Below are positions 8,643 to 25,606 of a stretch of 64,000 nucleotides of DNA, in pieces. The translations under genes were made by a program, and so were the position numbers. The notes beneath the pieces were generated by a model, which worked only from the letters and a program-made list of their open reading frames with translations, searched no databases and was not told where the DNA came from. Position 1 is the first letter of the stretch. Each line of letters opens with the position of its first letter. Source of the DNA: a virus (lineage: Duplodnaviria > Caudoviricetes); the IMG/VR virus record IMGVR_UViG_3300021368_000002; one strand, written 5' to 3'.

Positions 8643-8718
8643 CCAAAAGAGGTTGACATTTGCTAGTGTCGACCTTATTATGTATGTATAAGTTGAAACA
8701 ACAGACAAGAGGGTAACA

Positions 8719-10002: not shown

Positions 10003-10050
10003 ACTGACGCTATATTGTATGTATAGTTAGAAACAACGGAGGGCAATCCA

Positions 10051-10269: not shown

Positions 10270-10409
10270 TTTATGTGGTTAAGGACTCAAAAGGCAATAC
10301 GGTAGCACTCTGCTCAGATATAAAAGACGCTGAAGCATATCTAAAGAGTGCTGCCGTTGATAAAACAACCTACACGATTGAAACAATAAAAAACAAGGAA
10401 GAAAAATGA
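10266..10409 (+). CDS. 47-aa hypothetical protein
   Basis: read by eye; ATGA overlaps at both ends. Confidence 0.6.
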   Translation: MIYVVKDSKGNTVALCSDIKDAEAYLKSAAVDKTTYTIETIKNKEEK

Positions 10410-10807
10410 CCCATACCTTTTTCGAAAAAAATTCAAACTATATTGTAGAAGAACAATTCGACTCCGAACCGTTCATCGTCGAAGTGTCATGGGCACCAGA
10501 CTCAACCCAACTGGAGTTGGTATTTGATCCTTCAGAAGACTATTTCGAAGAGCTCCAGGAAAAGATCCGTGATGGTGTTTGGGAGCATTTCATCCTTAAA
10601 GTGGCTGTCTATTATGATGGACTGGAAGTAGGCAGTTCCTATCTGGGATCTATCGTTGCAGAATCACCTGCAGATTATATCAAAGACGATCCAGACAATC
10701 ATGTAGACGAAATGGTCAGAGAAGCACTCGACGAAGCCCAGAACGAATGTCTTAAACGATTAGACCGTTTGAAAGAAGATTTCCTAGGATTGTCCATTAC
10801 TGGTTGA
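10406..10807 (+). CDS. very acidic early protein
   Basis: AAGGA RBS; D/E-rich. Confidence 0.8.
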   Translation: MTHTFFEKNSNYIVEEQFDSEPFIVEVSWAPDSTQLELVFDPSEDYFEELQEKIRDGVWEHFILKVAVYYDGLEVGSSYLGSIVAESPADYIKDDPDNHVDEMVREALDEAQNECLKRLDRLKEDFLGLSITG

Positions 10808-10864
10808 CACGAGTGTGATCAGAATGTATTATTAGGGTATAGTTAGAAACAACGGAGGGCTCCG

Positions 10865-11149
10865 ATGGCTTATTACACCTACACTCAAAAACCAATTGGT
10901 GTTTTTGTAGAAAAAGACACTGGCAATTATTTTGAATATTCGGTTAATGACGAGCCCTATTCAAACCCACTTGCTGAGGACTTTCCACACAAGGTATGGG
11001 TAGGTGGAGGAGGTGTTGCTGGCATGACTGGCTGGCGCTTTGCCCATGTTCGCAAGACTGTGGCAACTATAGTCGTAGACGAAGATGAGTATGGTCTACC
11101 TGTTGTAGAGAAATGGTATTTGAAATCCAATAAGGAGTATGCGGTATGA
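10865..11149 (+). CDS. early hypothetical protein
   Basis: promoter 10804. Confidence 0.85.
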   Translation: MAYYTYTQKPIGVFVEKDTGNYFEYSVNDEPYSNPLAEDFPHKVWVGGGGVAGMTGWRFAHVRKTVATIVVDEDEYGLPVVEKWYLKSNKEYAV

Positions 11150-11418
11150 GATTTGATAATCTCGTGTTTTTCGGATCGCCTGAAGGCATCAAAAGAGCAA
11201 AGGTTCAGTTCGGCAAGTATGAACTGAGTGTGATACAGGAGCCCAAAAAGAACTCCTATGAAATCGCAATCTTTGACGAACAAGGAAGTTTCGTTCAGCT
11301 CCCTGGTATCCATAGAATCCCTGTGGATGATAGAGACTTCGTAGACGATGTGATCCCTTATCTTCAACCCGAGGCTGTTTCGGCAATCATGCTCAAGTTG
11401 GCATCCATTTCAGGTTGA
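11146..11418 (+). CDS. early hypothetical protein
   Basis: AAGGAG RBS; ATGA overlap. Confidence 0.75.
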   Translation: MRFDNLVFFGSPEGIKRAKVQFGKYELSVIQEPKKNSYEIAIFDEQGSFVQLPGIHRIPVDDRDFVDDVIPYLQPEAVSAIMLKLASISG

Positions 11419-11488
11419 CAATACAAAAATAGATGTTATAGTAAGAGTATAGTTAGAAACAACAAAACGCCTTAGGAGGGCTCCACAA

Positions 11489-11944
11489 ATGGCAACTCGT
11501 TCAAATATCGCTTACAAAACCGCAGAAGGCAAAATCCGTTCAGTGTATTGTCACTGGGATGGCTACCCTGCTCACAATGGTGAAATGCTCACTCGTCACT
11601 ATAGCGAACTAGACAAGGTGCGTCAGTTGATTGCACTAGGTTCTATCTCGTCTTTGCGTGAGGAGATCGGCGACAAGCAGGACTTTGATGATCGTTCGAC
11701 ACAGAATGACGCATGGACACTTGCCTATCACAGAGATCGCGGCGAGCAATTGAGCATCCAAGAATATGATGATGTTCCCAGCTGGATCGAAGACATGGAG
11801 GAGTATGCCTATCTTTGGACGGAAAACGGTTGGTTGGTAAACGACCACGGTGCAAAAGATGCCAACGGCTTTCCTATCTTCGACTATGTTGAAACGGTAG
11901 TCACAGATGAGATGCGAAAGCAGATTGGATGGGATAACGAATAA
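11489..11944 (+). CDS. conserved phage early protein (YCHWDGYP motif)
   Basis: MATRS.I..IRSVYCHWDGYPAHNG..L..HY; promoter 11415. Confidence 0.85.
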   Translation: MATRSNIAYKTAEGKIRSVYCHWDGYPAHNGEMLTRHYSELDKVRQLIALGSISSLREEIGDKQDFDDRSTQNDAWTLAYHRDRGEQLSIQEYDDVPSWIEDMEEYAYLWTENGWLVNDHGAKDANGFPIFDYVETVVTDEMRKQIGWDNE

Positions 11945-12114
11945 TGACAGAGATGCATATGGCGTGGGATGCCTTACAAGCCCTTCTTATCGTAGGATTC
12001 ACAATCGGTGTGGTTTGTGCAGTGATATTCGCTGCCATTAGACTGGGCTGGCAACTAGCCCCTTGGCTGTTTATTGGTGCATTTATCGTATGGTTTTTCA
12101 ATCAAATCACTTGA
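11944..12114 (+). CDS. 56-aa two-TM membrane protein
   Basis: read by eye; TAATG coupling; stop lies in next -35. Confidence 0.6.
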   Translation: MTEMHMAWDALQALLIVGFTIGVVCAVIFAAIRLGWQLAPWLFIGAFIVWFFNQIT

Positions 12115-12175
12115 CATTACGTCTAGAGATGTTATTATATATGTATAGTTAGAAACAAGGCAATGGAGGGTAACA

Positions 12176-12730
12176 ATGCCAAACTGGTGTAACAACACAA
12201 TCACAATCAAAGGTTCAACTGAAACTGTAAAGGCTCTTTGGGACCAAGCCACACAAGAAGACTCAGGTTTGCTGGATGCAATGATTCCTATGCCTGAAGC
12301 ACTCAAAGGCACTACTTCACCTGATCCTCAGCCAGGACAAGCCAATTACAAAGGTCCACAGCCTGTGGTTGATGGCTTCACTAATTGGTATGATTGGGCT
12401 ATCAAGAACTGGGGCGTCAAGTGGGATGTTTCAACCGAAGGGCTTGAGTATGAAGATCTAGGTGACGGCACTGCCTCTATCACAGGCTGGTTTGATTCGC
12501 CTTGGGGACCTCCTATTGAAGCCATGCAGAAGTTCGCAGACGATATGGACGGTGCCTATGTCGAACTGTTCTATCACGAGCCAGGCATGGCATTCGTAGG
12601 CTGTTGGGACTCAGAAGGTGGAGATGACTATTATGAATATGCCTCTGCTGATGACATTCCCGATTACCTAGACGAAGCCTTTGGCATCTCAGAAGATCTT
12701 GCGATGTGGGCAGAAGAGGAGACAGCGTAA
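12176..12730 (+). CDS. DUF1281/YubB-like (Api92-like) protein
   Basis: MPNWCNN.I.I.G, WYDWAIKNWGVKWD, FDSPWGPP, L.Y.EPGM.F.G. Confidence 0.8.
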   Translation: MPNWCNNTITIKGSTETVKALWDQATQEDSGLLDAMIPMPEALKGTTSPDPQPGQANYKGPQPVVDGFTNWYDWAIKNWGVKWDVSTEGLEYEDLGDGTASITGWFDSPWGPPIEAMQKFADDMDGAYVELFYHEPGMAFVGCWDSEGGDDYYEYASADDIPDYLDEAFGISEDLAMWAEEETA

Positions 12731-12894
12731 TGGATGCGGTATTGTTTGAAGACGTGGATCCAATGGAACTGGTATTAGAAGCAGTAGAGGACGCACTCAA
12801 AGGTCAGTGCGCCTCGTTTGAAATCATGAGTATTGATGGCGATGACACGGGCTTGACCTTTACTGTCTCTGCAGAATACAAGGAGAACTCTTAA
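12730..12894 (+). CDS. acidic 54-aa protein
   Basis: TAATG coupling. Confidence 0.65.
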   Translation: MDAVLFEDVDPMELVLEAVEDALKGQCASFEIMSIDGDDTGLTFTVSAEYKENS

Positions 12895-13139
12895 TGGTAA
12901 TGAGCCTGCGTGAAACTTTCAAAAGCCCCGGCGTAAAAGCTCGCTGGGTCTGCGTGTATGAGAATGCACCTATGACGGTTCATGCTACCAAAGAAGATGC
13001 AATGAACCAATTGATCCGTGAACACAATCCTGCGATTCGTGTAACTGATCCTAGAGGCGTGACACGGGTGACCATAGACGAGCATCGATCGTTCGTATAT
13101 CACACCCACGAACCGGAGGCAGATGATGGGACCGTATAG
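12894..13139 (+). CDS. hypothetical protein
   Basis: AAGGAG RBS. Confidence 0.7.
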   Translation: MVMSLRETFKSPGVKARWVCVYENAPMTVHATKEDAMNQLIREHNPAIRVTDPRGVTRVTIDEHRSFVYHTHEPEADDGTV

Positions 13140-13335
13140 CGAAGAAACACAATATCGCAGAGCTCAGAGCATCTGCAACCTGTTGGAGCGATCGCCTGAT
13201 CTGCCCGCAGAAACTAGAGCTATTTGGCAGAATCACCTCGCCAATCTCGCTAGAAACGAAACCACTTACAATTGGCGAGTGAAAGAAATCTATTCTAAAC
13301 TAACAAGGAGGCCTTTGATCCAATGGGACGAGTAA
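13123..13335 (+). CDS. hypothetical protein
   Basis: GGAGG RBS. Confidence 0.7.
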   Translation: MMGPYSEETQYRRAQSICNLLERSPDLPAETRAIWQNHLANLARNETTYNWRVKEIYSKLTRRPLIQWDE

Positions 13336-13508
13336 ACGACTGGACACTTGGTATGGAAGAAGATGCGAGCTGGATGAGCAGAGACGTGTTCGTTCGAGTG
13401 TATGGCATCCGTCAACAAGACATCTGGGAACGGATTAACAACCCTGAGGACTACTACGAACCAGAGCCTGACTTTGAAGCAATGGAAGAAGGTTTCTATG
13501 GCTCGTAA
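13323..13508 (+). CDS. acidic hypothetical protein
   Basis: AAGGAGG RBS. Confidence 0.7.
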   Translation: MGRVNDWTLGMEEDASWMSRDVFVRVYGIRQQDIWERINNPEDYYEPEPDFEAMEEGFYGS

Positions 13509-13722
13509 GTTCGCAAAAAGATATTTGAAGCCTACAGTATTTGATCCCAAGGATCATTGGATGGTAGGCATTGAATGGCCCGTGCAAGGTTCCAAAGGCA
13601 ATGAATATCTAGTGACCTTGCACGACCAAGGCTTTGAATGTGAATGCACAGGATTCCAATTCCACGGTGCTTGCAAGCATAGCAAAGCCGTTCTCGCTCA
13701 AGTAGAAGGAGCAATGACATGA
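13498..13722 (+). CDS. SWIM zinc-finger protein
   Basis: CECTGFQFHGACKH (CxCxnCxH); start ATG 13498. Confidence 0.8.
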   Translation: MARKFAKRYLKPTVFDPKDHWMVGIEWPVQGSKGNEYLVTLHDQGFECECTGFQFHGACKHSKAVLAQVEGAMT

Positions 13723-13928
13723 GCAAACCTAAACAGTTTAAGGGCCGGGTCTACACCTATTCACAGCCCTACACAACCTACAATACCTTTCCTAACTCTG
13801 CACCATTCACCAAACAGGAGATGCAGACACAACAGGAATTAGGTCGTTGGAAAACAATCGACTCAATCGTAGATAAGATGGATGAGTTCCCTGAAGTTGA
13901 GAGGTTGCTGGCCCAAATAGTGCGATAG
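13719..13928 (+). CDS. hypothetical protein
   Basis: AAGGAG RBS; ATGA overlap. Confidence 0.7.
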   Translation: MSKPKQFKGRVYTYSQPYTTYNTFPNSAPFTKQEMQTQQELGRWKTIDSIVDKMDEFPEVERLLAQIVR

Positions 13929-13953
13929 CACCTGCGGTTCTAAAAAAAATTTT

Positions 13954-14247
13954 ATGAGCATTGTATACGATATAGATGATGAAACACGGCAATACCTAGA
14001 GGCAGCTCTTAACTGTCTTGTTCATGTAGCAGATTGCCAAATACAAGATGCAGACGCAGAAGCTCTTTATCACATAGGTGACACACTAGCAGATAGATTC
14101 GGCATTGAAAAGATAGATGTTGAAACCGTGCAGGGCACTGACGAGAATGGTGAAGAGGTTACTGTGATCAGAGAACGCAAGCGACCTTCAAAAGGATTGA
14201 GTTGGAGTATTAGCCACGAAGATCCAGATGATATGAACGAAGATTAA
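13954..14247 (+). CDS. acidic hypothetical protein
   Basis: ORF track. Confidence 0.65.
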   Translation: MSIVYDIDDETRQYLEAALNCLVHVADCQIQDADAEALYHIGDTLADRFGIEKIDVETVQGTDENGEEVTVIRERKRPSKGLSWSISHEDPDDMNED

Positions 14248-14257
14248 CACACCACGA

Positions 14258-14310
14258 GGCCCCGCTGTTAGAACCTAGATTACCTACACGACCTACAGGC
14301 CCCGCTGTAT
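14258..14310 (+). repeat. two copies of GGCCCCGCTGT, 40 bp apart
   Basis: 14258-14268 and 14298-14308; further copies at 4876 and 18357. Confidence 0.85.
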
Positions 14311-14342
14311 GGTCTCTGCGATCTGCGATAAATATCTTTCAC

Positions 14343-14495
14343 ATGGCACATGAACGAGATTTTGCAGACGAAACAGACGATCCTTGCGATCACATACCTA
14401 TCGAACGACTGTTGTTATGGTATACGTCAAATGAGCCACATCCTGAATACCCCAAGCAAATAGAAACACGAGATACTGAAGGCGATGCCCTATGA
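14343..14495 (+). CDS. 50-aa hypothetical protein
   Basis: read by eye; GATAAATA upstream. Confidence 0.5.
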   Translation: MAHERDFADETDDPCDHIPIERLLLWYTSNEPHPEYPKQIETRDTEGDAL

Positions 14496-14635
14496 TCTCA
14501 GTAGTAGAGAAACAGAATCGTAACCGTAAAACCTATTGGGTGGTAGAGCGGAACGGTAGTATATTGCTTATCACACACTCAAAAAGCATTGCCCAAGACT
14601 ATGCAGATAAACTACGAGCCAACACTAGAGACTAG
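14492..14635 (+). CDS. 47-aa hypothetical protein
   Basis: read by eye; ATGA overlap. Confidence 0.5.
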   Translation: MISVVEKQNRNRKTYWVVERNGSILLITHSKSIAQDYADKLRANTRD

Positions 14636-15228
14636 TGTGAGTGCGAGTATAGTTAGAGTGAAAAACGGTGAAAAGTATTTGAACTATGCCTCTCGTCACC
14701 TTCCGTGACTCGAAAAAATTCACACTTAGAACCGTAGAGAACCGTGATTGTTGGATGGTTTTCTGCACACTAGCCACCATTTAACCACCATTGCAGGGCC
14801 CTTAAAACCGTCTTAAAAGGCGAGTTTGACCTTGGTCCACGGCTCGCAGGGAGAGGTGGTTTGAGGGGCCTCCGGCCCCACTTTGCCCCTACTCTACTAC
14901 TACAGTTTCAACCTACTCTGTCGCTAGTAGTGTTTCAACCTAAGACTCTGATTCTGCACATTTTTTCCACTCTTTGCTAGCCGTATATTATACACTCTCT
15001 ACACTATATAAGCAAGTTAAAAGACACATTAACTATACGATGTAACCTACTGTTATTATTAGACTTTTTCCTAAGTATTTGATTTTATTGGATTTTTTCT
15101 CGCGGCCATCGTGGTCTTTCGTTCTTTAGGTGTCGTTCGTTCTTTTTGCGATTTTGGATAAAAAGAGGTTGACAGGTGTGTAGGCAGGTGCTATAGTGTA
15201 TGTATAGTTAGAAATTAGGAGGGCACCT

Positions 15229-15444
15229 ATGCAATACGGAATGTTTACTAAAGAAGGCGATGCGAAAGTCCACAAGTTGGTCCTGCAAGCGAGGCAGTAT
15301 GCGGATTTGGATGGACCGATTAATCCTGTAGAGCAGGCGTGGAATTGGTTGCTAAACGAGCTCCATGCACTAGGCGAGGATCCGGCTTTTGAAGAGGCGA
15401 CCGACACAGCCGTTAGAGAGGCCTGTTACGACAGGCTAATTTAA
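15229..15444 (+). CDS. early hypothetical protein
   Basis: promoter 15169; GGAGGG RBS. Confidence 0.85.
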   Translation: MQYGMFTKEGDAKVHKLVLQARQYADLDGPINPVEQAWNWLLNELHALGEDPAFEEATDTAVREACYDRLI

Positions 15445-15521
15445 TCGCCAAAAGAGGTTGACACTATAGCGAACAGGTGCTATAGTGTATGTATAGTTAG
15501 AAACGCAGAGAGGGCACAATC

Positions 15522-15869
15522 ATGCAATTCATCGTAAGCACACAGGGACTTGAGAACTATGGCGCACACTGTGAGGACGGCAAGTTCCGTTCGGGCAATG
15601 CCTACTGGAAGTTCAAGTCAGGCACGGACTACCTTGTGTCGGGCCTAGAGCGGCCGCAAGATGCGATGGCATTCGTTGCCTCGTTCGGTATGGACAATTC
15701 AATCGGTTGGAAGGAGTTCCCATGCGAGGTTGTGAGCGAGGATGAATGGGAGTCACAGTGGAACATGGACGACGAGTTCGATGTGGAACACAGAGAGTTC
15801 AAGCTCTCTATTATGGTTAAGGTGGATCCGAGAGATCCGGCGACCTACAAACGGTTTTTGGCAAGGTAG
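15522..15869 (+). CDS. early hypothetical protein
   Basis: promoter 15458. Confidence 0.85.
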   Translation: MQFIVSTQGLENYGAHCEDGKFRSGNAYWKFKSGTDYLVSGLERPQDAMAFVASFGMDNSIGWKEFPCEVVSEDEWESQWNMDDEFDVEHREFKLSIMVKVDPRDPATYKRFLAR

Positions 15870-15932
15870 GGGTTGACAACCCCGCCACCTGGTGTTATAG
15901 TAGTTGTATAGTTAATAGAGAGGGTGATGACA

Positions 15933-16136
15933 ATGTTTGTACTGATTTGGAAAGGTGAAGAGATTGATTCGTTTGAGTCCGAGGCAGAGGCCCGGAGCAT
16001 GGCGAGTGAATACAACATGGCCTACGGTGGAGGTGTCCACGTAGAGTTTGTCGAGGAAGACGACGGACAGCCAAGTTGGGAGCAGGAGTGGGAAGACTTC
16101 GGCGAAGACGCAGGATACGAGATGGAGTATCTCTAA
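15933..16136 (+). CDS. extremely acidic small early protein
   Basis: promoter 15873; D/E-rich C-terminus. Confidence 0.8.
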   Translation: MFVLIWKGEEIDSFESEAEARSMASEYNMAYGGGVHVEFVEEDDGQPSWEQEWEDFGEDAGYEMEYL

Positions 16137-16139
16137 AGA

Positions 16140-16336
16140 GGCCCTCAGGTCGGGAGTATAAACCCAGTTAGACCGGAACACCTACATACAAGTTCCGGCG
16201 GGAGATGGGAAGGCGCCCTCGAGAAAGGCCTCCCACTTTTAACGCCCGCGGTTTTAACGCCCGTGACTTTTTGGGTCCTTTCGTGCGGTAAAAAGGTCAG
16301 AGCTCCGTGCCCTCCCGTTCCAGCTCTCCGGTCCTC
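16140..16336 (-). ncRNA. candidate structured RNA from the divergent promoter
   Basis: GC-rich; several inverted repeats (GACCGGA/TCCGGTC, CCGGAAC/GTTCCGG, AGAGCT/AGCTCT); TTTTAACGCCCG direct repeat; no start codon after its RBS-like motif. Confidence 0.4.
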
Positions 16337-16342
16337 AATTAT

Positions 16343-16371
16343 AATATAGCACAAGCCTAGCACTATGTCAA
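16343..16371 (-). promoter_or_regulatory. divergent sigma70-like promoter
   Basis: reverse strand GGGG-TTGACA-N17-TATATT. Confidence 0.8.
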
Positions 16372-16399
16372 CCCCTTGTGCGAAAAAAGAATCCTTTGT

Positions 16400-16453
16400 T
16401 TTCAAGAGGTTAGAAAAAAAATAAAAATAAATTTTTCTGCTAAGTCATTGTTT
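16400..16453. promoter_or_regulatory. inverted pair of IHF-consensus-like sites flanking an A/T tract
   Basis: TTTCAAGAGGTTA (16400) and TAAGTCATTGTTT (16441), each 1 mismatch from WATCAANNNNTTR. Confidence 0.45.
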
Positions 16454-16537
16454 TTAAACAAAACATTTTGCTTTACAAGTACGTATTGTTGTGTTATATT
16501 GTTTGTATGTTAACAAATGCATATAGGAGGGCAACAT

Positions 16538-16852
16538 ATGCAAACAACAACAAAAACATTAGACTGTGCTGTACGTGTAAATTGGGTAGCAGAGGATGCA
16601 GAATGGAAAGCAGAGTTTGAACAGTATGGCTATGACACAGATATGTGGGTTGCTGTAGGTGACTTTGATTATGAATGGAGAGATAACGTAGAAACTGTGG
16701 CTGTATTAAAAGACGAAGAATACGGTTTTATGTGTGGAAACGAAAGTGACAGGCGCTGCTACGGATTTACTGTGGATGTGTACAAAGCAGAGGAAGCAGA
16801 TGGCAACTACAGTTTTTGGATAACAGAGGAAGACTTTGAAAAAATAGGTTGA
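16538..16852 (+). CDS. acidic Pro-free early protein
   Basis: TTTACA promoter; GGAGGG RBS; ATG 16538. Confidence 0.85.
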   Translation: MQTTTKTLDCAVRVNWVAEDAEWKAEFEQYGYDTDMWVAVGDFDYEWRDNVETVAVLKDEEYGFMCGNESDRRCYGFTVDVYKAEEADGNYSFWITEEDFEKIG

Positions 16853-16913
16853 CAACTGTGTGTATGTGTGCTACTATGTACACATACACTAACAAGCAAT
16901 AGAGGGCAATGCT

Positions 16914-17165
16914 ATGCTTACAAAATACGAAAACGCAGTAACAAAAGCAATTGAATATTTTGCACTGCAAATTAACAACTGTGCGCACGACAGCGTAGTA
17001 GAAAACAACGACTACGGAATTTACGACAGCATAGACAGCATAAACTTTTTGTTTAGCAACTACAAAAATTTTGACAGCGTAACAGCACTTGCAAACTTTG
17101 CACTAGACAGCACACTGGATACTGTAGTGCGCGAAAACATATACTACGTGCTAACGGAAAAATAA
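16914..17165 (+). CDS. acidic Pro-free early protein
   Basis: hairpin promoter 16849. Confidence 0.8.
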   Translation: MLTKYENAVTKAIEYFALQINNCAHDSVVENNDYGIYDSIDSINFLFSNYKNFDSVTALANFALDSTLDTVVRENIYYVLTEK

Positions 17166-17231
17166 CACTTGACAACTGTGTATGTGTGCTATAGTGTACA
17201 CATACACTAAACATAGCAGAGAGGGCAAACT

Positions 17232-17447
17232 ATGCTACAAGTACACATTTTACAACTGCAAGGCACAGGCGACGACGAGAAGGCTTGGGAGAACGCAGGG
17301 GTGTTTGCAAGTTGGGAAGAAGCACAAGAACGTGCAGCAGAATTTAGCAAAGAAGACATTGAGGAGTACGGCGAAGCGTTTTGGATAATGGGCGAGAATA
17401 TGCGTATTGAAACACATGACGTAGTAGACAACAACTGGGGGTACTAG
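17232..17447 (+). CDS. acidic Pro-free early protein
   Basis: hairpin promoter 17169. Confidence 0.8.
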   Translation: MLQVHILQLQGTGDDEKAWENAGVFASWEEAQERAAEFSKEDIEEYGEAFWIMGENMRIETHDVVDNNWGY

Positions 17448-17519
17448 TAAAAAAAACAGTTGACAGCAGCAAGTTTTGTGTTATACTGTATGTACAGTTA
17501 AACAAAACGAGGGCTACGT

Positions 17520-17768
17520 ATGTTAACTACAAAACAACTTGCACGTAATGTGTTTTTAACTTATTGCAGCACTAGCAATACAATGTTTAAACATTGTAGC
17601 AAAACAAAGCCGCAGCACGTTAGCACAACAAACGTAAAAGCAGTAAAGCGCAACGTAAGCGCACAACTTGTGCAACAGTACAAAATGCTTCCTGCACTGT
17701 ACAACTTGTACAACAAAAACAAAAGTGTTAAGCAAACAGCAACACAACTAATTAACAGCATTGTGTAA
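17520..17768 (+). CDS. basic early protein with no Asp, Glu, Gly or Trp
   Basis: promoter 17460; GAGGG RBS. Confidence 0.75.
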   Translation: MLTTKQLARNVFLTYCSTSNTMFKHCSKTKPQHVSTTNVKAVKRNVSAQLVQQYKMLPALYNLYNKNKSVKQTATQLINSIV

Positions 17769-17842
17769 AAAAAACTTGACAACTGTGTGTATGTGTGCTA
17801 CTATGTACACATACACTAAACATTGCAACTAGTGAGGGCTAC

Positions 17843-18316
17843 ATGGCAATACATTACAGTACACAGGTACAAGACTACTTTGAACACTTGACAAACGAGT
17901 GTGCAGACGAAACACGTTTTACACAAGACGAAAAGTGTTTTGTGTTAGAATTTTTAGCAAACACACTGTATGGCTTAACGGAAGTAAACAGCGAAAGTTT
18001 GCGTGACGACAAGCAATTTGTGCGTATGCAAGATTGCAGTGAGGTAGCAGACAACTACGTAATGCTACTAAACAAACACAAACGCAGTGACTATACTGTA
18101 GTAAACGGCAAGTATGTGGAAAGTGACGAATACTATACGTTTACACTAGAAGATGCAGGCACTGCTATTTGCAGTTATGACACAGAGTATAGAGAGTGCA
18201 TAACAGAGCAATTTGAAGATGCACTTAACGAGTACTTTGCATTAAGCAAAGCAAACAAAATTGCAACACTTGATATTGCAAACTGTTTAGCGTGGCGAGT
18301 GTTTAACAGTTACTAA
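17843..18316 (+). CDS. acidic Pro-free early protein
   Basis: hairpin promoter 17776; ATG 17843. Confidence 0.85.
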   Translation: MAIHYSTQVQDYFEHLTNECADETRFTQDEKCFVLEFLANTLYGLTEVNSESLRDDKQFVRMQDCSEVADNYVMLLNKHKRSDYTVVNGKYVESDEYYTFTLEDAGTAICSYDTEYRECITEQFEDALNEYFALSKANKIATLDIANCLAWRVFNSY

Positions 18317-18386
18317 CGCTAACACTGTGCAGTGTGTGCAAATGCGTACACTGTGCGGCCCCGCTGTATAGCGGATAAAACATAAC

Positions 18387-18428
18387 AAAAACAAGCACTT
18401 ACAAAAAAAATGCTAAGTGCTTGTTTTT
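18387..18428. repeat. perfect 15-bp inverted repeat with IHF-like arms
   Basis: AAAAACAAGCACTTA-N12-TAAGTGCTTGTTTTT. Confidence 0.85.
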
Positions 18429-18513
18429 AAACGAAACTTTTTGCTTGCATTGTGCAAATAGTTGTGTTATATTGTTTGTATAAATTAAATGTAACAGCAT
18501 AGAGGGTAATAAT

Positions 18514-18774
18514 ATGCAAAACACACAAACAAACAACTATGTATTTTTAGCAGCAGCAAACGCTGCTATTGTTGTAACTGTAAACAACAAAGTTGTTGCT
18601 ACAGACGTACAAACAGCAGACGCACTTGTGCAAGTGTTTTTAACACATAATATTAATGTACTAAAAGACACTATTATGTGTAGCAGCAGCATAGATTTTG
18701 CAGAAGAAGAGGGCTTTGCTAGTGACGCAAGTGCGCATAATATAATAGATGAAGCATTTGAAGCATTAGCATAG
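18514..18774 (+). CDS. Pro-free early protein
   Basis: TTGCAT promoter; GAGGG RBS. Confidence 0.8.
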   Translation: MQNTQTNNYVFLAAANAAIVVTVNNKVVATDVQTADALVQVFLTHNINVLKDTIMCSSSIDFAEEEGFASDASAHNIIDEAFEALA

Positions 18775-18879
18775 TACGCTAATACTTTAGTATAGCAAGC
18801 ACTATACAAAAAAGTGCTTGCTATTTTTATTTTTTGTGTTATATTAGTTGTATAAGTTAACAAGCATATGAGGGCTATT

Positions 18880-19149
18880 ATGCAAAATACAACAACAAAA
18901 ACCGCACGTAGCATTGTGCGTAACATCCTAAAGCAAAACAACGTAATGTATTCCTCACATAGTTATACAAACAAATGTGCAAATCCTGCGCTGCGTAATA
19001 TTTGCTTCCTCACTAAAAACTTAACTCCTGCTGTGCTGCAACAAATTGCTTCTTCGCTTAATGTTAGCAAAGTACACGCAACAAAGCCTAAGTTTTACAA
19101 TGTGCATCCGGATGCACGTTACCTACGCATTGTGCATTGCAAAATGTAA
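18880..19149 (+). CDS. basic early protein (one Asp, no Glu/Gly/Trp)
   Basis: TTGCTA promoter; GAGGG RBS; ATG 18880. Confidence 0.75.
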   Translation: MQNTTTKTARSIVRNILKQNNVMYSSHSYTNKCANPALRNICFLTKNLTPAVLQQIASSLNVSKVHATKPKFYNVHPDARYLRIVHCKM

Positions 19150-19222
19150 AAAAAACGGTTGACAAGTGTGTTTGTGTGTGCTACTATGTACACATAAACA
19201 CTAAAAAGCATAGGAGGGTTAT

Positions 19223-19414
19223 ATGCTTACACTTTGCAACAAAAAACTGCTGCGTGACGGCAGTTGCGTTTTTACAAACTTTAACTTTTACAACAAAGTA
19301 AAAGATGCAGACGGAGACGTGTGCTACTACTACGCAAACTTGCACTACAAAGGCACTACGCAAAAATGCAGTGTTAGTGTGCAAAACGGAAACGTAGTAG
19401 GTTGGCAAACGTAA
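19223..19414 (+). CDS. Pro-free early protein
   Basis: hairpin promoter 19159. Confidence 0.8.
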   Translation: MLTLCNKKLLRDGSCVFTNFNFYNKVKDADGDVCYYYANLHYKGTTQKCSVSVQNGNVVGWQT

Positions 19415-19498
19415 AAAGTTAAAAAAAATGCAAATTAGGGGTTGACAAACGGCTCCTCCTTTGCTATAGTGTATGTATAGTTAGAGAGCGAGGGCAAG

Positions 19499-19660
19499 AT
19501 GATACGTTTTATGACAGGACTTTTTGTAGTGATGGCAGCAGTAGGTACGCTAGAGGCGAACCACGAGGCGAGCTTGCTATGGTACGGAATGCTAGGCTTG
19601 GTTGGTTGTGCTGCAATGGCATGGCCGGTATGTGACGGAACACTGACAGGAGACGAATAA
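19499..19660 (+). CDS. 53-aa membrane protein
   Basis: promoter 19442; read by eye; two hydrophobic stretches. Confidence 0.65.
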   Translation: MIRFMTGLFVVMAAVGTLEANHEASLLWYGMLGLVGCAAMAWPVCDGTLTGDE

Positions 19661-19860
19661 TGGATTGGCGTGAGTATGCACTAGAGCAGGTAGAGATTGG
19701 AACCATCGATCCTGAGCTGCTGGCGACTTGTTTGCTGAAGTATATGTCGCAGGACGACATCCAGGACTGCCTGGACACGAACGAGCTGACCCCTCGTTTC
19801 GCTGACGATCCCAACTTCCCAGCTGAGAGCAGCGATGCAGATATTTGCCTAGTTTGGTAA
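19660..19860 (+). CDS. acidic hypothetical protein
   Basis: TAATG coupling; AGGAG RBS. Confidence 0.75.
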   Translation: MDWREYALEQVEIGTIDPELLATCLLKYMSQDDIQDCLDTNELTPRFADDPNFPAESSDADICLVW

Positions 19861-19933
19861 AAAAGTGGTTGACAGGTGTGTGGTTAGGCCATATACTGTA
19901 AGAGTAAGTTAAACAAAGCAGAGGGCTTTATAG

Positions 19934-20221
19934 ATGAAAACTTTTAGTGTAGCAGGAACTTCGCGTTTGAACGGTACGGTTAAGATTCGCTTTGCAAATG
20001 ACTTTGTAAGCCGTATGAAGGTGCTGTTTAAGAACGGACACGAAGACGTCGAGTTGATCGAACTTGGCGGTGAGTTTACTAAATCCGAAGTTTGCCAGAT
20101 CCTAATGGCACATCCTAACTTCCAATCGGAAGAACAACAAGCAGCGATTTACGAATATGTAATCCGCAACTGCCGTGACATTAAAACCGAAATAGAGGAG
20201 AAGATGCTACAAGAGGCATAA
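19934..20221 (+). CDS. early hypothetical protein
   Basis: promoter 19869. Confidence 0.85.
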   Translation: MKTFSVAGTSRLNGTVKIRFANDFVSRMKVLFKNGHEDVELIELGGEFTKSEVCQILMAHPNFQSEEQQAAIYEYVIRNCRDIKTEIEEKMLQEA

Positions 20222-20302
20222 GATCACCTCGGGCGAAGTACGGTGAAGCCTACTTCGAGATTGGTAGAGCGGTGGGGCTCCAATCACTTTTCGAATTTCA
20301 TA

Positions 20303-20379
20303 GGGCCATTAGCTCAATTGGTTAGAGCACCGGACTCATAATCCGTAGGTTGACAGTTCGAGTCTGTCATGGCCCACCA
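20303..20379 (+). tRNA. tRNA with CAT anticodon, most likely Ile2 (lysidine type)
   Basis: GGGCCAT/ATGGCCC acceptor, CT-CAT-AA loop, TTCGAGT T-loop, encoded CCA; paired G1:C72 argues against initiator. Confidence 0.88.
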
Positions 20380-20382
20380 GAA

Positions 20383-20459
<77 letters not shown>

Positions 20460-20464
20460 ATACC

Positions 20465-20549
20465 GCTCGCGTGGTGAAATAGGTAAACACAACGGACTTA
20501 AAATCCGTCGCCGATAGGCTTGCCGGTTCGATTCCGGCCGCGAGCACCA
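20465..20549 (+). tRNA. tRNA-Leu(TAA)
   Basis: GCTCGCG/CGCGAGC acceptor, ACGGA-CT-TAA-AA-TCCGT, long variable arm, CCA. Confidence 0.95.
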
Positions 20550-20631
20550 AAACTTTTTTTAAAAAAGAGGTTGACAACCGCACTAAAAGATCGTATAGTG
20601 TATGTATAAGTTAAGCAAGAGGGCAAACACA

Positions 20632-20820
20632 ATGATTAGAATTTTTAACTCAGCACTAGAAGGCGAGCGTTGGATTCCACTGGACGAGGTCAACATTGTA
20701 ACACAAGGCATCGATCCTGTGTTTTCATCACCTTACATTTTGTTTGAGCACAAAGACTATCCACTAGGTGCGCTGCGAGCTGAGTTTACAGACGGCCATT
20801 GGGCTGCGGATTTGAATTAA
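20632..20820 (+). CDS. early hypothetical protein
   Basis: promoter 20571; ATG 20632. Confidence 0.8.
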   Translation: MIRIFNSALEGERWIPLDEVNIVTQGIDPVFSSPYILFEHKDYPLGALRAEFTDGHWAADLN

Positions 20821-20889
20821 TTAGGGGTTGACATTCTAACGTTAGAGTGTATACTGTAAGAGTAAGTTAACAAAGGGCAAGAGGCGCAA

Positions 20890-21882
20890 ATGAATATCAT
20901 TATTAACGAAGGCACGTACAAGATACGAGGCAAAGACACTAGTGTAGCCGGTATGGTGTTTCCACTAGTAGAGGAATTTAAAATGGGTGCTGCAGGAGGT
21001 TACGTAACAGTCGACGGCAAGGCAGTCGCAGGCTTTCCAGATCGTAACATCAAGATCAAGGTGTCGGATGCGGATGCATACGAGTCAGTAGATGCTGCAC
21101 CTACGCAGAGAGAAGAGACCGACGAAGAGACCATTGAACGGTTGCGTGAACGATTTGAAATGCTCGAAGACATGACCCGAGCTGCTAAGAAAGGTGATGT
21201 GCGAGCAATGATCGTATCAGGACCTCCTGGTGTTGGTAAGTCGCACGGTGTAGAAAAAGTACTAGGCAAGCACGACTTGATTGCGCAGTTAGGCGATCGT
21301 CCTGCAAAGTACCAGGTGGTGAAAGGTGCTATGTCGCCCATCGGCCTCTACTGTAAACTGTTCAACTATGCCGACAAGGATAATGTATTGGTGTTCGACG
21401 ACTGTGACTCAATCTTCAGCGACGAACTATCGTTGAACATCCTCAAAGCAGCACTTGATTCGAAGAAGACACGTACCATCCATTGGAACACTGATTCATT
21501 CAAGCTACGTAACGAAGGCGTGCCGGATTCATTCGAGTTCAAAGGTTCAGCGATCTTTATCACGAACTTGAAGTTCGACAAGACCAAAGGCAAATTGCGT
21601 GAGCATCTAATGGCACTAGAAAGTCGTTGCCATTACATCGACCTTACGATTGATACCGAGCGAGAGAAGATGCTGCGTATCAAACAGATCGTCGGCGATG
21701 GTATGCTCCGTGAGTACAAGTTCGGTGAAGAACTACAGCAAGAGATCGTAGACTTCGTTGATATTAATAAGAAGCGACTAAGAGAACTGTCATTGCGTAC
21801 AGTACTAAAGGTCGCCGATTTGGCCAAGGCATTTCCTACCAAGTGGGAAGCCATGGCAGAGAACACTGTGATGAAGCGTTAA
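20890..21882 (+). CDS. P-loop AAA+-type ATPase with N-terminal extra domain
   Basis: Walker A GPPGVGKS; Walker B VLVFDDCD; FITN; ALESR. Confidence 0.88.
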   Translation: MNIIINEGTYKIRGKDTSVAGMVFPLVEEFKMGAAGGYVTVDGKAVAGFPDRNIKIKVSDADAYESVDAAPTQREETDEETIERLRERFEMLEDMTRAAKKGDVRAMIVSGPPGVGKSHGVEKVLGKHDLIAQLGDRPAKYQVVKGAMSPIGLYCKLFNYADKDNVLVFDDCDSIFSDELSLNILKAALDSKKTRTIHWNTDSFKLRNEGVPDSFEFKGSAIFITNLKFDKTKGKLREHLMALESRCHYIDLTIDTEREKMLRIKQIVGDGMLREYKFGEELQQEIVDFVDINKKRLRELSLRTVLKVADLAKAFPTKWEAMAENTVMKR

Positions 21883-21948
21883 GCCCTCAACGCTCACAGT
21901 GAGTACAGCATACGAGCAACAGCCCTCACGCTCTGCTGTACGTCCGTG

Positions 21949-21994
21949 GCCCGGGTTGAGCTCTATGCCCTCAGAGCTCCCCGGGCTTTTTTTT
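21949..21994 (+). terminator. intrinsic terminator
   Basis: GCCCGGG..GAGCTCT/AGAGCTC..CCCGGGC followed by a T run. Confidence 0.85.
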
Positions 21995-22064
21995 ACCAAA
22001 AGTGGTTGACATATGAGCACAGTGATCATATACTAATAATAAGAGTTAAGGAAACGAGGGTAAC

Positions 22065-22421
22065 ATGAAAAAATTCGCAATCAACACAACATCAAATCTT
22101 CTTTCAGCACTGGTTATTGCAGGCGCGATCTTTGTAGCACAACCTGCCAAAGCCGGTGACGACTTTGTGAAAGGACTGTTTGGTGTGCTGATACTTAATG
22201 AGATTCTAAACAACAACAGTTCGAACCACACACACTCTACGACGATTATCGATCGCCAGGTGTATAACGATCACGCTCGATCAATCCACAGCCGTTCAGA
22301 GACGATCCGTAGAGCAAGCCAACGAACTGTATGCTATTCGGAATACCGTGAAGCAACGAACGGCACGATCGTTCGTTACGATTACAACTGCCAAGGAAAT
22401 GTTCTTTCAGTAAGCAGATAG
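22065..22421 (+). CDS. secreted or membrane hypothetical protein
   Basis: signal-peptide-like N-terminus; promoter 22006. Confidence 0.8.
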   Translation: MKKFAINTTSNLLSALVIAGAIFVAQPAKAGDDFVKGLFGVLILNEILNNNSSNHTHSTTIIDRQVYNDHARSIHSRSETIRRASQRTVCYSEYREATNGTIVRYDYNCQGNVLSVSR

Positions 22422-22488
22422 GGGTTGACAGACACACAGTCAGATCATATACTGTAAGAGTAAGTTAAACAAAGAGAGGGCACACTCA

Positions 22489-22815
22489 ATGACACAAGTA
22501 GCAGTAATCCACACAGCATTCGAAGACACTCCCCGCACTGTAGCACTGGTAGACGCACCAGAAGGCACAGTAGAACAGCAGCTGGAGTATGCTTACCGTT
22601 GGACACAAAACATCATGGACAGTTGGTCAATGAAAGGTGAAGCCGATGGCAACGATCGAGTAACACTTATGGCTCCACTGTATGAAGATGAGAACGGTAA
22701 GCAATGGGGACACCGCAGCACAAGCATGGGAGATCATATGCTGCTAGGCACTACCAAGTACGTAGTATCAGCTGTCGGGTTTGAACAATTAGAGGTTGAC
22801 AGTGTAGCCAACTGA
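22489..22815 (+). CDS. early hypothetical protein
   Basis: promoter 22425. Confidence 0.85.
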   Translation: MTQVAVIHTAFEDTPRTVALVDAPEGTVEQQLEYAYRWTQNIMDSWSMKGEADGNDRVTLMAPLYEDENGKQWGHRSTSMGDHMLLGTTKYVVSAVGFEQLEVDSVAN

Positions 22816-22861
22816 GGCTATACTGTAAGAGTAAGTTAACAAAGCAAGAGGGCAATACGCT

Positions 22862-23200
22862 ATGAACTACACTGTAAACGATCTTAAAGTAATCCTAAAC
22901 AAAGCACAGGCAGCAGCAGAAGCAGCAGCCGATCAGTTCGAGAACGAATACTTTCCGAACGGTGGCTGGGGAGCGTGTGGCTTTGCTTGGGTAGACATTC
23001 CAGTAAAAGGCAACACCAAGTTGGGCCGTGCGCTTAAGGCAGCAGGTGTAAGCAAGCATTGGAAGTCGGGCTTCCAACTGTGGAACCCAAGCAAGTATCC
23101 TACACAGAACGTGGACACGCTAGAAGCAGGTGCACGAGCAGCAGCAAGAGTGCTGCAAGGCTACGACATTCCAGCTTACGCAGGCAGTCGACTAGACTAA
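22862..23200 (+). CDS. early hypothetical protein
   Basis: promoter 22796; GACGFAWV motif. Confidence 0.85.
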   Translation: MNYTVNDLKVILNKAQAAAEAAADQFENEYFPNGGWGACGFAWVDIPVKGNTKLGRALKAAGVSKHWKSGFQLWNPSKYPTQNVDTLEAGARAAARVLQGYDIPAYAGSRLD

Positions 23201-23252
23201 CAGTAGCAGTCCTAGACTGTTACACTCAACTGATAAATGAGGTTAGTAGAGA

Positions 23253-23281
23253 GGGAGTAGCGGAGACGCTGCTCCTTTTTT
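23253..23281 (+). terminator. intrinsic terminator ending the early region
   Basis: GGAGTAGCG-GAGA-CGCTGCTCC followed by T run. Confidence 0.8.
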
Positions 23282-23473
23282 CTTTTCAAAAAAAAATTTC
23301 TCGAGAGGTCGGGAGGTATATAAAATAAATTTTGTTCTTGCAGTTTAGCGTAGTAGTCCTTTCTAAAAAATGGGGTGATGCAAAATCACCACCCAGAAAC
23401 GATAAGTACTTCACCATAATTTTTTGCGCGACCAAATTTTTTCACTACAGGACCCATTTCGGATAAACACTGT

Positions 23474-23677
23474 ATGCAACATCAATACTGTGCTTATACT
23501 GAGGATCGCGAATCAATGCGTCTAGCATATAAGCTAATACAAGAACACAATCTAAAGTTTGAAGCTCACATTAATCGTACACGCTTTTGGGTAGACTCAG
23601 ACACAGAACTCAACACACTATGCGCTCTACGCTTTAAGTGTATAGATTCAGAAACCAATCATTCACTAGGTGTGTAG
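23474..23677 (+). CDS. hypothetical protein
   Basis: GATAAACA 4 nt upstream of ATG. Confidence 0.6.
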   Translation: MQHQYCAYTEDRESMRLAYKLIQEHNLKFEAHINRTRFWVDSDTELNTLCALRFKCIDSETNHSLGV

Positions 23678-23880
23678 CTAGTACGAGTGCAAACGAGTAC
23701 GTATTGAGCGTAGCTCAATATCAGAACCTCTTAACAATGAGGTAGCGTAGCTTACATCATAAATACTCTTGTGCGTACAGTGCTTACTCACAGTTTGAAC
23801 ACTTGTCACAGGTATGCTTTAGTGTAGCTACATACTACTTGCAAACTAGTTGACACGCTGTACGCACTATTTTATTAAAG

Positions 23881-24099
23881 ATGTATAAACTAAAACTCAT
23901 ATACGATCCAGAGCCAAGAACACAAACGCTCAAAGAGTCAGTTACATTCTGTGCTGCCAATGACTTGTATATATCGCATGGTATTGATGCTTGTCAATGT
24001 AGTGCGAGTGAACTACTGTTTGATACAGATAGGGATCGTATGTTTGCACTTATAGTATTGAGCGCAAGCAAATCATTTACTCCAGTAGCAGTAAAATAA
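23881..24099 (+). CDS. hypothetical protein
   Basis: ORF track only. Confidence 0.5.
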   Translation: MYKLKLIYDPEPRTQTLKESVTFCAANDLYISHGIDACQCSASELLFDTDRDRMFALIVLSASKSFTPVAVK

Positions 24100-24301
24100 A
24101 CACCATCTTTTAGTCAATCGCCATTTACGAATGGTTTTAGGGCTATACAAATGGTGTTGCTGCATGGTTGACTGGGAATTGTTTTTATAGTGTTGCCGAG
24201 TATCGTTGTACTGGCCTACAAATTTTTGCGTAAAACAGCTTCGCTGCTTGTTGAAAAATCGCGGAACCGCAAGCGGCTTTTGGGCTTCCGACCTTGCAGG
24301 C

Positions 24302-25606
24302 TTATTCGGCTTTGATCGCCATCCAGCGGATTGAACGTGGATCTGAAGTTGGAGGTGAATCTGTAAACGTAAATCCAGTTGAGTTGAATGTAGGACGGAA
24401 TGTTACGTTTTGCTGTTCTAGTTCGTTTCTCAGTGTGTGATGGAACTGTGTGCCACGCTGTGCATCGTATATGCGAATCTCGCCATCGTATGAGTCAATC
24501 GTAAATAGATACTGTGGTTCCCATCCCAGTGTTACAGTTACAGTACCAGCGGAGTTTGTGCAGTCAAATGAGCCGCCTCTTACAACACCTGAGCTTGCTG
24601 TGTCATGTGCAAATATGTATGCAACATAGTTATGGCTCAGTGCATTGGTTCTTGCGTTGTTGCCCACTAGTATTGATTCGTCAGTAAACAGTGTTCTGTT
24701 GGGGAATACCGTTGAGTCTGTTGCGTATCCTGTGGTGCCTGATTGGCGGTTTAGATCTTTGTACTGTAGATTGTCAAAGTTTCTATGCCATAGTGTGTTT
24801 CTTACTGTTTGGTTGTAGCACACAACGATCACCATTGACGGTTCTTCGCCTAGGTCGTGTGTGATTACTCTGTTGGCAGCGCCATTGCCTACCCAAGTCT
24901 GTACATCCATAAAACGCTGTGCTTTTTTGAATGTTGTGGCGATCATGTTCTCGCCGTCTGTTCGTGCGTGAGCACCTTGATCCGTGTTGTTTATGATCGG
25001 CGATGCTTCTATGTCGTAACCTGTAGCAAGGAACTGGCTTACACCTTGTGCATCTGCTTGTGCAGGACCTGTTTCTGTAGGTTGATAGAAGTTTGCACCC
25101 CATGCTGTTGAAAGCAACACAGCAGGTGCAGTTGAACTTGCGTCTTTGGTTAGCACAAAGCCCGTGTTGTTGGTTATGTCAACACCAGTTGCAATGGTTT
25201 GTGCTAGTAGTGTACCTGCGAATGTTCTGTTGTCAAACACGTTGCTCATTGTAGGAGCAGAGATTCCACTCAGCAGTTCACCTGTTGGTGTTTCAATTCC
25301 TGTTACCACACAACTGCAATCACCATAACTAACCCAGCCGACCAATCTATCTCCGTAGCCCATTACAACATTTGATTTTTCAAAAACACCCTTGGGAGGA
25401 ACTTCTGTGTCATATTCAATATATTCGCCTGTCACAGGATCGTTGCCTACAGTTTCTTTTGTAGTAGCAAGCCTAATAGCTTGTGTTTGGTTTGATCTGT
25501 TCACAAAGGAAACGTTCACAACTGAAAAATTTGCTTCTGGAGTTGCGTATAGGTCTGTTAGTGTGTTTCCTGCTAGGTTTTCTGCTGCTAGTCTTCCTGA
25601 TGCCAT
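24302..25606 (-). CDS. virion fibre or appendage protein
   Basis: WVGNGAANRVITHDLGEEPSMVIVV module typical of marine phage fibre proteins; N-terminus paralogous to next gene. Confidence 0.7.
   Translation of the reverse strand: MASGRLAAENLAGNTLTDLYATPEANFSVVNVSFVNRSNQTQAIRLATTKETVGNDPVTGEYIEYDTEVPPKGVFEKSNVVMGYGDRLVGWVSYGDCSCVVTGIETPTGELLSGISAPTMSNVFDNRTFAGTLLAQTIATGVDITNNTGFVLTKDASSTAPAVLLSTAWGANFYQPTETGPAQADAQGVSQFLATGYDIEASPIINNTDQGAHARTDGENMIATTFKKAQRFMDVQTWVGNGAANRVITHDLGEEPSMVIVVCYNQTVRNTLWHRNFDNLQYKDLNRQSGTTGYATDSTVFPNRTLFTDESILVGNNARTNALSHNYVAYIFAHDTASSGVVRGGSFDCTNSAGTVTVTLGWEPQYLFTIDSYDGEIRIYDAQRGTQFHHTLRNELEQQNVTFRPTFNSTGFTFTDSPPTSDPRSIRWMAIKAE

Follow-up and report, generated by a model that had tools for sequence, protein, structure and literature searches.

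A gene island nearly free of TC and CC dinucleotides in a clade of jumbo phages

What could lead a phage to clear two dinucleotides almost completely from one strand of a short run of adjacent genes? The question is raised by a segment of a 64,000-nt stretch of viral DNA (IMG/VR record IMGVR_UViG_3300021368_000002; Duplodnaviria, Caudoviricetes; hereafter, the window), in which TC and CC are nearly absent from the + strand between positions 16446 and 19454. This island consists of eight cassettes, each comprising a promoter, a leader and a coding sequence (CDS), and its coding strand is the + strand. Below, YC stands for TC plus CC, and GR for GA plus GG. An earlier note on the same DNA had pointed out the depletion and proposed strong selection on DNA expressed immediately after entry. 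The window belongs to a large (jumbo), uncultured marine myophage with a 1077-amino-acid (aa) tail sheath protein, a T4-type large terminase, a DnaB-type helicase and three tRNAs. Its nearest cultured relative is the Pseudomonas jumbo phage PA5oct, a distant one with 56% terminase identity, and no close DNA relative was found among 50,697 GenBank phages, near-identical DNA matches being confined to tRNA.

Depletion beyond protein and codon composition

The island contains 25 YC (11 TC and 14 CC on the + strand of 16447-19453) compared with approximately 264 expected from the background of the same + strand early block (0.088 YC per nt). The long runs devoid of TC and CC claimed in the earlier note are borne out: they span 16446-17610 (1165 nt), 17692-18359 (668 nt), 18362-18902 (541 nt) and 19123-19454 (332 nt), with log10 P at the background rate of about -46, -27, -22 and -13, respectively. 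Outside the island, the longest YC-free run in the whole window is 122 nt, and no other single dinucleotide is absent from the window for more than 407 nt. Nor are such runs frequent elsewhere: a full reading of the 275-kb relative G001 revealed a single island, and in the complete 357-kb genome of another relative, G003, there is no island and none of the island gene families is represented. In neither sequence do eight control dinucleotide pairs produce a run of 150 nt or longer.

The purge extends to the proteins as the earlier note described. Pro is absent from six of the eight open reading frames (ORFs), all Ser codons in these six are AGY, the island contains no GCC codon, and the lone TTC, ATC, CTC and ACC codons, along with four TCN codons, all fall inside the two exceptional genes that retain YC. 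None of the 11 residual + strand TC lies in a TNTC context, and GATC flanks the island (15825 and 15834) but does not occur inside it.

Synonymous resampling with the codon usage of the flanking genes yielded 10-35 YC per gene (minimum 2-18 in 2000 trials) where none was observed, and permutation of each gene's own codons among synonymous positions predicted 0.6-5.7 junction YC per gene, again against zero. These tests confirm that the depletion goes beyond protein or codon composition. Because neither procedure reproduces it, the purge acts on the nucleotide string, in all three codon phases and in the spacers. When the islands of related loci are pooled (33 kb), TC and CC drop jointly and no other k-mer is missing. 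The idea that the island avoids mRNA structure was rejected, given that island mRNAs fold as well as or better than shuffled sequences (z of -2 to -5).

A second, weaker constraint is superimposed on the first. Two + strand genes, at 17520-17768 and 18880-19149, are free or nearly free of GA and GG, with GR-free runs of 266 and 237 nt. Resampling predicts 12-15 GR in these genes whereas 0 and 2 are observed, and the encoded proteins are devoid of Glu, Gly and Trp and contain one Asp or none. The product of the second gene, an 89-aa protein whose gene carries 19 YC and 2 GR, has homologues in other phages (BLASTP E = 1e-8) that form a YC-free, GR-rich family; a single protein family exists in a YC-free and in a GR-free version. 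The same tendency is detectable in the YC-free genes: the observed/expected ratio of G|A at codon junctions is 0.42 in 48 fully YC-free genes compared with 1.06 in 776 normal genes, and Arg codons containing GR account for 33% in YC-free genes compared with 52% in normal ones. The island spacers of the window (779 nt) hold 41 GR by a hand-curated count, compared with about 85 expected, and roughly three quarters of these sit within ribosome-binding or -35 motifs. Thus, a weaker purge of GA, and less so of GG, operates at all sites left free by the genetic code, the ribosome-binding motifs and the -35 motifs, and both orientations of the GR/YC step are disfavoured. Loss of YC costs only Pro, whereas loss of GR costs Asp, Glu, Gly and Trp, so that most genes are YC-free and only those for acid-free basic proteins are GR-free; the strand asymmetry may therefore largely reflect coding cost and not which strand is read. 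In one related locus (L085, 13030-13548), a 172-codon ORF contains neither YC nor GR, its predicted protein lacking Pro, Asp, Glu, Gly and Trp.

Decay of C to T as the source of the YC-poor state was rejected because both the composition and the polymorphism spectrum are against it. Islands have lost 73 YC per kb; AC and GC have together risen by 45 per kb and TT and CT by only 10 per kb, and the C content is nearly kept (16-18% compared with approximately 20%). Third codon positions in island genes shift toward A, and G exceeds C on the sense strand. Among loci that are 88-99.9% identical, C/T differences per site are 0.0169 after a pyrimidine (YC) and 0.0178 after a purine (RC), and a test for a deaminase footprint found the TC/CC depletion but no matching TT/CT excess or C loss. 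Families that are always purged hold 0-2 YC across 37-76% amino acid identity. The window genes and their G001 orthologues differ by 140 synonymous changes (crude proportion of synonymous differences, pS, 0.41; ratio of nonsynonymous to synonymous proportions, pN/pS, 0.37), which indicates that the ORFs are real genes and that their YC-free state has been held through much turnover. These results show that the YC-poor state is kept through deep divergence by purifying selection. Accordingly, the strong selection suggested in the earlier note is supported in the form of lasting selection on the nucleotide sequence that reaches into the proteins.

Conservation of the island and the cassette as its unit

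The ATPase gene at 20890-21882 was used to recover 79 loci (51-86% identity) from the public viral contigs of IMG/VR. Among these, 26 non-redundant loci hold 47 YC-free segments of at least 300 nt, 33.3 kb in total and up to 1969 nt long, always on the strand of the early genes. An island lies upstream of the ATPase gene in 16 of the 28 loci in which approximately 6 kb or more of sequence is available there. Recurrence in relatives, with one island per genome, identifies the island as a real, heritable, accessory trait of this phage clade and not an assembly or sequencing artefact. The gene families themselves occur in both purged and normal states, from 0 to 116 YC per kb across phages.

PA5oct has no island near its ATPase gene, just a YC-free stretch of 244 nt (L118, NC_071039, 35839-36082, annotated as gp099) that includes a 141-nt GR-free run. 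This stretch contains ACGCA/TGCAA-type words and inverted repeats, as do the island spacers, and may be a relic or an RNA element.

The borders of the islands delineate the unit on which the constraint acts. Every island gene is preceded by a sigma-70 type promoter of its own and by a GAGGG-type ribosome-binding site. In the island loci, the first promoter's -35 hexamer is preceded by 1-87 nt of YC-free sequence; in the window, the entry promoter (TTTACA-17-TATATT, 16472-16500, +) is YC-free, and the last upstream YC lies 26 nt before its -35 hexamer. The segment from -35 to -10 contains YC in 2 of 19 entry promoters compared with 393 of 501 ordinary promoters of the same loci, and none of the 30 internal promoters with YC-free sequence on both sides carries YC. 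At the other end, YC resumes immediately behind a terminator hairpin, within the spacer of the promoter that follows, or where the following gene has its ribosome-binding site; in the window, it returns within the spacer of the exit promoter that serves the next, normal gene (19442-19470, +). Leaders and CDSs lack the target dinucleotides, which the 3' untranslated region, the sequence after terminators and the genes that follow can carry. Given that promoters, leaders and CDSs are purged and that YC is back after the terminator or at the next promoter, the constrained unit is the gene cassette.

Genes of the island and their surroundings

The eight genes, all on the + strand, encode small proteins. 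The first (16538-16852; 0 YC, 57 GR) encodes an acidic, Trp-rich, Pro-free 104/111-aa protein with homologues in loci L042 and L040 that are YC-free as well. It is followed by genes for an 83-aa protein (16914-17165; 0 YC), of a family whose members range from YC-free to 10 YC per gene, and a 71-aa acidic protein (17232-17447; 0 YC), with 0-1 YC in all six members of its family. The 82-aa basic protein (17520-17768; 0 GR, 3 YC) is without Asp, Glu, Gly and Trp. Next comes the gene for an acidic 157-aa protein predicted to be helical (17843-18316), from a family that is always YC-free at 37-76% amino acid identity, and then that for an 86-aa acidic protein (18514-18774; 0 YC) with 534 metagenomic homologues; its homologue in Melnitz, a phage of OM43 (Methylophilales), has normal YC. 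The 89-aa basic protein (18880-19149; 2 GR, 19 YC) is predicted to adopt a ferredoxin-like alpha/beta fold, and the last gene encodes a 63-aa protein (19223-19414; 0 YC). Searches of PHROGs and Pfam with all eight proteins returned no family match, and a protein-atlas search with the 157-aa protein gave no usable match. The AlphaFold models of the 157-aa and 89-aa proteins have pLDDT of 77 (helical) and 80, respectively; Foldseek against the PDB (E <= 0.001) found no match to either, AlphaFold-DB contained none to the 157-aa model, and the 89-aa model bears only a generic ferredoxin-like resemblance (VIA Z below 8). Host-takeover and counter-defence modules typically contain small early proteins that are acidic or basic like these, which suggests such roles here.

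Within the island, an internal promoter (TTGACA-17-TACTAT, 16849-16877, +) is YC-free, and an inverted repeat is formed by its spacer together with the bases downstream; similar copies begin at 17169, 17776 and 19159, and others at 17460 and 18818, all on the + strand and YC-free. Several island promoters have an inverted repeat around the -10 box. At 16468-16476 and 18440-18448, TTTGCTTTA / TTTGCTTGCA stands near -30 in place of TTGACA; these motifs resemble the T4 MotA box of middle promoters, and some cassettes may accordingly be of another timing class. A terminator-like hairpin with a T-run at 18383-18432 (+), without YC or GR, was read from the sequence; the scan missed it because of its long loop. 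Outside the genes, YC clusters solely in the 11-mer GGCCCCGCTGT (18357-18367, +), in a 3' untranslated region. The GC-rich motif GGCCCCGCT(GT) is found both at this place and, in related loci, at the 3' ends of island transcription units (L044 at about 5470, L040 at about 1870 and L022 at about 8605).

Upstream of the island, a divergent consensus promoter on the - strand (TTGACA-17-TATATT, 16371 to 16343) drives a non-coding, purine-rich stretch of approximately 200 nt with many GGA and GAGGGC motifs, promoter and stretch together spanning 16130-16371. This arrangement is found beside the island in at least 11 related loci (L015, L076, L047, L059, L003, L008, L039, L081, L005, L026 and L043). 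By its sequence, the purine-rich stretch recalls protein sponges of the CsrB/RsmZ type or decoys of ribosome-binding sites; Rfam contains no family for this RNA, and it folds no better than shuffles (z 0.94). In one sub-clade only, and not in the window, 4-7 DnaA-box-like 9-mers (TGTGGATAA) cluster just upstream of the island (L036 184-242, L081 8779-9180, L083 8009-8292); the cluster may be a replication origin or a DnaA trap.

Elsewhere in the window, auxiliary genes lie at 619-1110, 29146-30117, 34730-35509 and 43579-44349: a pseudoazurin gene, a gene for a carbamoyltransferase N-domain protein between the primase and the helicase, a KdsA-like gene (Pfam match to DAHP_synth_1) and a cytidylyltransferase-cupin fusion. 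The pseudoazurin gene and the sigma-70 type promoters suggest a proteobacterial host. The phage also carries sugar-nucleotide genes, and its carbamoyltransferase is found in all five large relatives as well. An ORF of the early block (9295-10002) has a weak match of the IceA/NlaIII type (Pfam ICEA, E = 0.003, under the cut-off); CATG occurs in the islands at 0.59 of expectation compared with 0.84 in the flanks.

The phage is common: at least six studies yielded metagenomes, from seawater, marine, marsh and estuary samples, that contain near-identical sequence. In two DNase-treated marsh metatranscriptomes, contigs match the early region, including three island genes, with zero mismatches, although carry-over of DNA is possible. 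Island and flanks are covered alike, and 23.2-25 kb has no matches; these data consist of contigs and thus bear on presence, not on transcript starts, ends or levels. Metagenome contigs (runs X6 and X9; window positions 7000-25000), from co-occurring strains, join distant positions at promoters and ribosome-binding sites, for example, 15181 to 16878, 16469 to 18558 and 15226 to 20551, which is consistent with shuffling of cassettes via recombination at conserved promoters.

Candidate selecting agents and comparison with known systems

What, then, selects against these dinucleotides? We tentatively favour an enzyme or another factor that reads dinucleotides on single-stranded nucleic acid, either RNA or unwound DNA. 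Such an agent would need only a dinucleotide on a single strand, and it could act on mRNA, on the DNA of heavily transcribed cassettes in its unwound state, or on both. Each site would be an independent hit, hence the near-total removal. This agent might be an immunity enzyme of the host or an enzyme by which the phage itself shuts the host off; the island genes would have counter-defence or host-takeover functions that need a correct read-out while the agent is active, and ordinary genes would become usable once its phase ends. Accessory genes involved in an arms race are expected to be patchy, so that the occurrence of the island once per genome, and patchily among relatives, counts in favour of this reading. 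A narrower form, possible but more doubtful, is that an undescribed enzyme of marine bacteria, or of the phages of this clade, inactivates single-stranded RNA or DNA at each 5'-YC-3', perhaps along with another enzyme specific for GA/GG. If so, a clade of jumbo phages would answer it with 'motif-null' genes, that is, cassettes wholly rewritten without the target, at the price of proteins without proline, or without Asp, Glu, Gly and Trp, and the island would offer both a ready list of counter-defence genes and a way to track down the enzyme.

Several observations weigh against a single-strand dinucleotide reader. A YC-specific enzyme was not identified in the window or in the five large relatives; searches for the RegB and Psu families gave no matches, which is uninformative because the controls gave none either; the island proteins show no recognisable function in family and fold searches; and the presence of deaminase-family genes does not follow that of the island. 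Cassettes in the flanks that use the same types of promoter and ribosome-binding site are unpurged. The entry promoters are YC-free upstream of the transcription start, which a purely RNA-level target does not predict. The gene for the 89-aa protein retains 19 YC, and some genes carry one or two, so that a single site is not lethal. The unpurged neighbours also lend no support to the proposal that the island marks DNA expressed immediately after entry. Its location at a physical terminus that enters first found no support either: the contig ends nearby share no common terminal sequence and thus look like assembly breaks. Of the causes suggested in the earlier note, enzymes acting on single-stranded DNA fared best in that the single-strand class remains the best candidate, but the rest of the genomes lacks the mutation footprint of a YC deaminase, and the DarT motif TNTC, absent from the + strand of the island, occurs 51 times on its - strand (51 GANA on +).

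An alternative that we consider unlikely is evasion of Rho, whereby a YC-free transcript could not load Rho and the early genes would be spared the silencing that Rho imposes on RNA that is foreign or poorly translated. In the Rho hexamer, every primary RNA-binding cleft binds one 5'-YC dinucleotide (PMC12360218), so that the purge exactly matches the only known universal YC reader, and six of the eight genes and their leaders are without YC. Islands usually start at a divergent promoter or a non-coding gap, where rightward transcription begins, so that they are not preceded by YC-rich RNA; the cassettes adjoin one another, 3' untranslated regions and later genes downstream tolerate YC, G exceeds C on the sense strand, and the host is probably proteobacterial. 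However, Rho needs many YC over approximately 80 nt, and near-total removal, even from single 250-nt cassettes with their own promoters, exceeds this requirement. The purge of GA/GG and the GR-free gene versions would stay unexplained, the spacers of entry promoters are purged although they are not transcribed from those promoters, residual YC are spread evenly along the genes without polarity or 3' bias, and in loci L042 and L022, a YC-bearing gene reads directly into the island. Slightly less likely is a target in DNA alone, with a cytosine deaminase, a DarT-like ADP-ribosyltransferase or a frequent nickase marking or nicking YC on either strand, unwound or duplex, and the strand specificity resulting from coding cost. 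This would account for the selection against both GR/YC orientations where it is cheap, for the inclusion of promoters in the purged unit and for the same protein being encoded with either strand cleaned; yet close loci show no excess of C/T differences in the YC context, TNTC persists on the - strand, the enzyme would strike the other ~300 kb of the genome too, and the 19 YC of the 89-aa protein gene, cheap to remove, have been kept.

The remaining explanations carry far less weight. The phage's own context-specific base modification, for example, of guanine at GA/GG, might be kept off the template strand to let the host RNA polymerase transcribe the first genes; the template strand of most island genes is without GA/GG, and the carbamoyltransferase domain and the sugar-nucleotide genes would fit. 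This cause, also raised in the earlier note, is improbable nonetheless: five relatives (237-358 kb, four of them incomplete) contain no TGT/DpdA (PF01702) and no C5-methyltransferase (PF00145), methyltransferases of the N6/N4 and Dam types are found in one genome each, carbamoyltransferase, ThyA and deaminase-family genes are shared by genomes with and without the island, and neighbouring early genes with the same promoters are unpurged. Sunlight chemistry offers an exact match of the dinucleotide sets, because the 5'-G of GG and GA is the most easily oxidised guanine and TC and CC are the main sites of (6-4) photoproducts, whereas AG and CT are not avoided; strand orientation would be irrelevant, and the phages come from surface water. 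Still, we give little credence to the island being damage-proof DNA for genes that work in a sun-damaged genome, as this does not explain why accessory cassettes and not essential genes would be protected, the template strand keeps YC, TT dimer sites are plentiful, and second-order selection is unlikely to be so strong. We are just as sceptical of an imported block, with cassettes slowly reverting after transfer from a donor genome of such composition throughout. Sharp borders, patchy presence and the within-family YC gradient (0 to 116 per kb) would be in keeping with import, but island and flanks share the same types of promoter, ribosome-binding site and hairpin, YC has remained at 0 across approximately 0.4 synonymous differences per site, and 1.8 Mb of relatives contain no such donor. 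Least probable is a broad escape from restriction enzymes with GA/TC or GG/CC steps in their sites: either purge deletes GATC, TCGA, GGCC, CCGG and 28 of the 64 six-base palindromes, and GATC, absent from the island, is over-represented in the flanks. The palindromes compatible with the purge, however, are no rarer in the island than in the flanks (0.92 compared with 0.94 for 4-mers, 0.94 compared with 1.0 for 6-mers; only AGCT, CATG and CGCG are mildly low), enzymes need whole sites and not dinucleotides, and the rest of the genome stays cuttable. Avoidance of restriction palindromes was accordingly rejected, and the escape from host nucleases that the earlier note had listed among the causes is not supported for double-strand sites.

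With a reader of dinucleotides on single strands as the preferred agent, the island can be set beside known systems. Leading regions free of host-enzyme sites include the early region of T7 before Ocr, the first-step-transfer DNA of T5, the anti-defence islands in plasmid leading regions and the host-takeover module of SPO1. As in the island, small early genes are clustered, each with a strong promoter, and the targets of host enzymes are avoided, but those regions avoid specific sites of 4-8 bp and the island avoids dinucleotides. The ACA-less mRNAs that resist MazF are similarly immune by the absence of a nuclease's short motif; in that case, the motif is a trinucleotide and its absence engineered or statistical, whereas the island is a natural dinucleotide purge conserved over a clade.

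Viruses of eukaryotes shed dinucleotides read by innate immune factors as well, as witnessed by APOBEC3 footprints in papilloma- and polyomaviruses and by the loss of CpG and UpA in RNA viruses (ZAP, RNase L). Those losses are genome-wide and partial; that in the island is local, nearly absolute, found in a phage and accompanied by the loss of whole amino acids, and unlike an APOBEC3 footprint, it comes with no excess of C-to-T products. No description of such islands was found in the literature searched, and although motif shedding in response to immune factors is known for viruses, a local, near-absolute, clade-conserved loss that removes amino acids seems to be undescribed for phages. Runs of more than 300 nt without TC or CC provide a simple signature for finding candidate counter-defence or takeover genes in uncultured phages.

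The island also raises the testable question of what reads YC and GA on its genes, with Rho, an RNase, a base-modifying enzyme and a DNA-level agent as candidates. In silencing of foreign DNA through Rho rut sites, YC is likewise the unit that is read, by the primary clefts (PMC12360218). The island differs in that its promoters and GA/GG are constrained as well. Known anti-Rho strategies, to our knowledge, involve proteins (Psu, N, Q) or antitermination RNA and not YC-free genes. The other close parallel is CmdT, a defence ADP-ribosyltransferase that acts against T-even-like phages by modifying GA in single-stranded RNA, which blocks translation of the mRNA. As would be the case for the favoured agent, its whole specificity is one dinucleotide on a single-stranded nucleic acid, and GA is also avoided in the island, where the main purge is nevertheless of TC and CC. 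We know of no YC-specific enzyme of the CmdT type. The authors of the CmdT study judged escape through loss of sites implausible; contrary to that view, the island would show that escape of this kind from a dinucleotide-reading factor is evolutionarily reachable.

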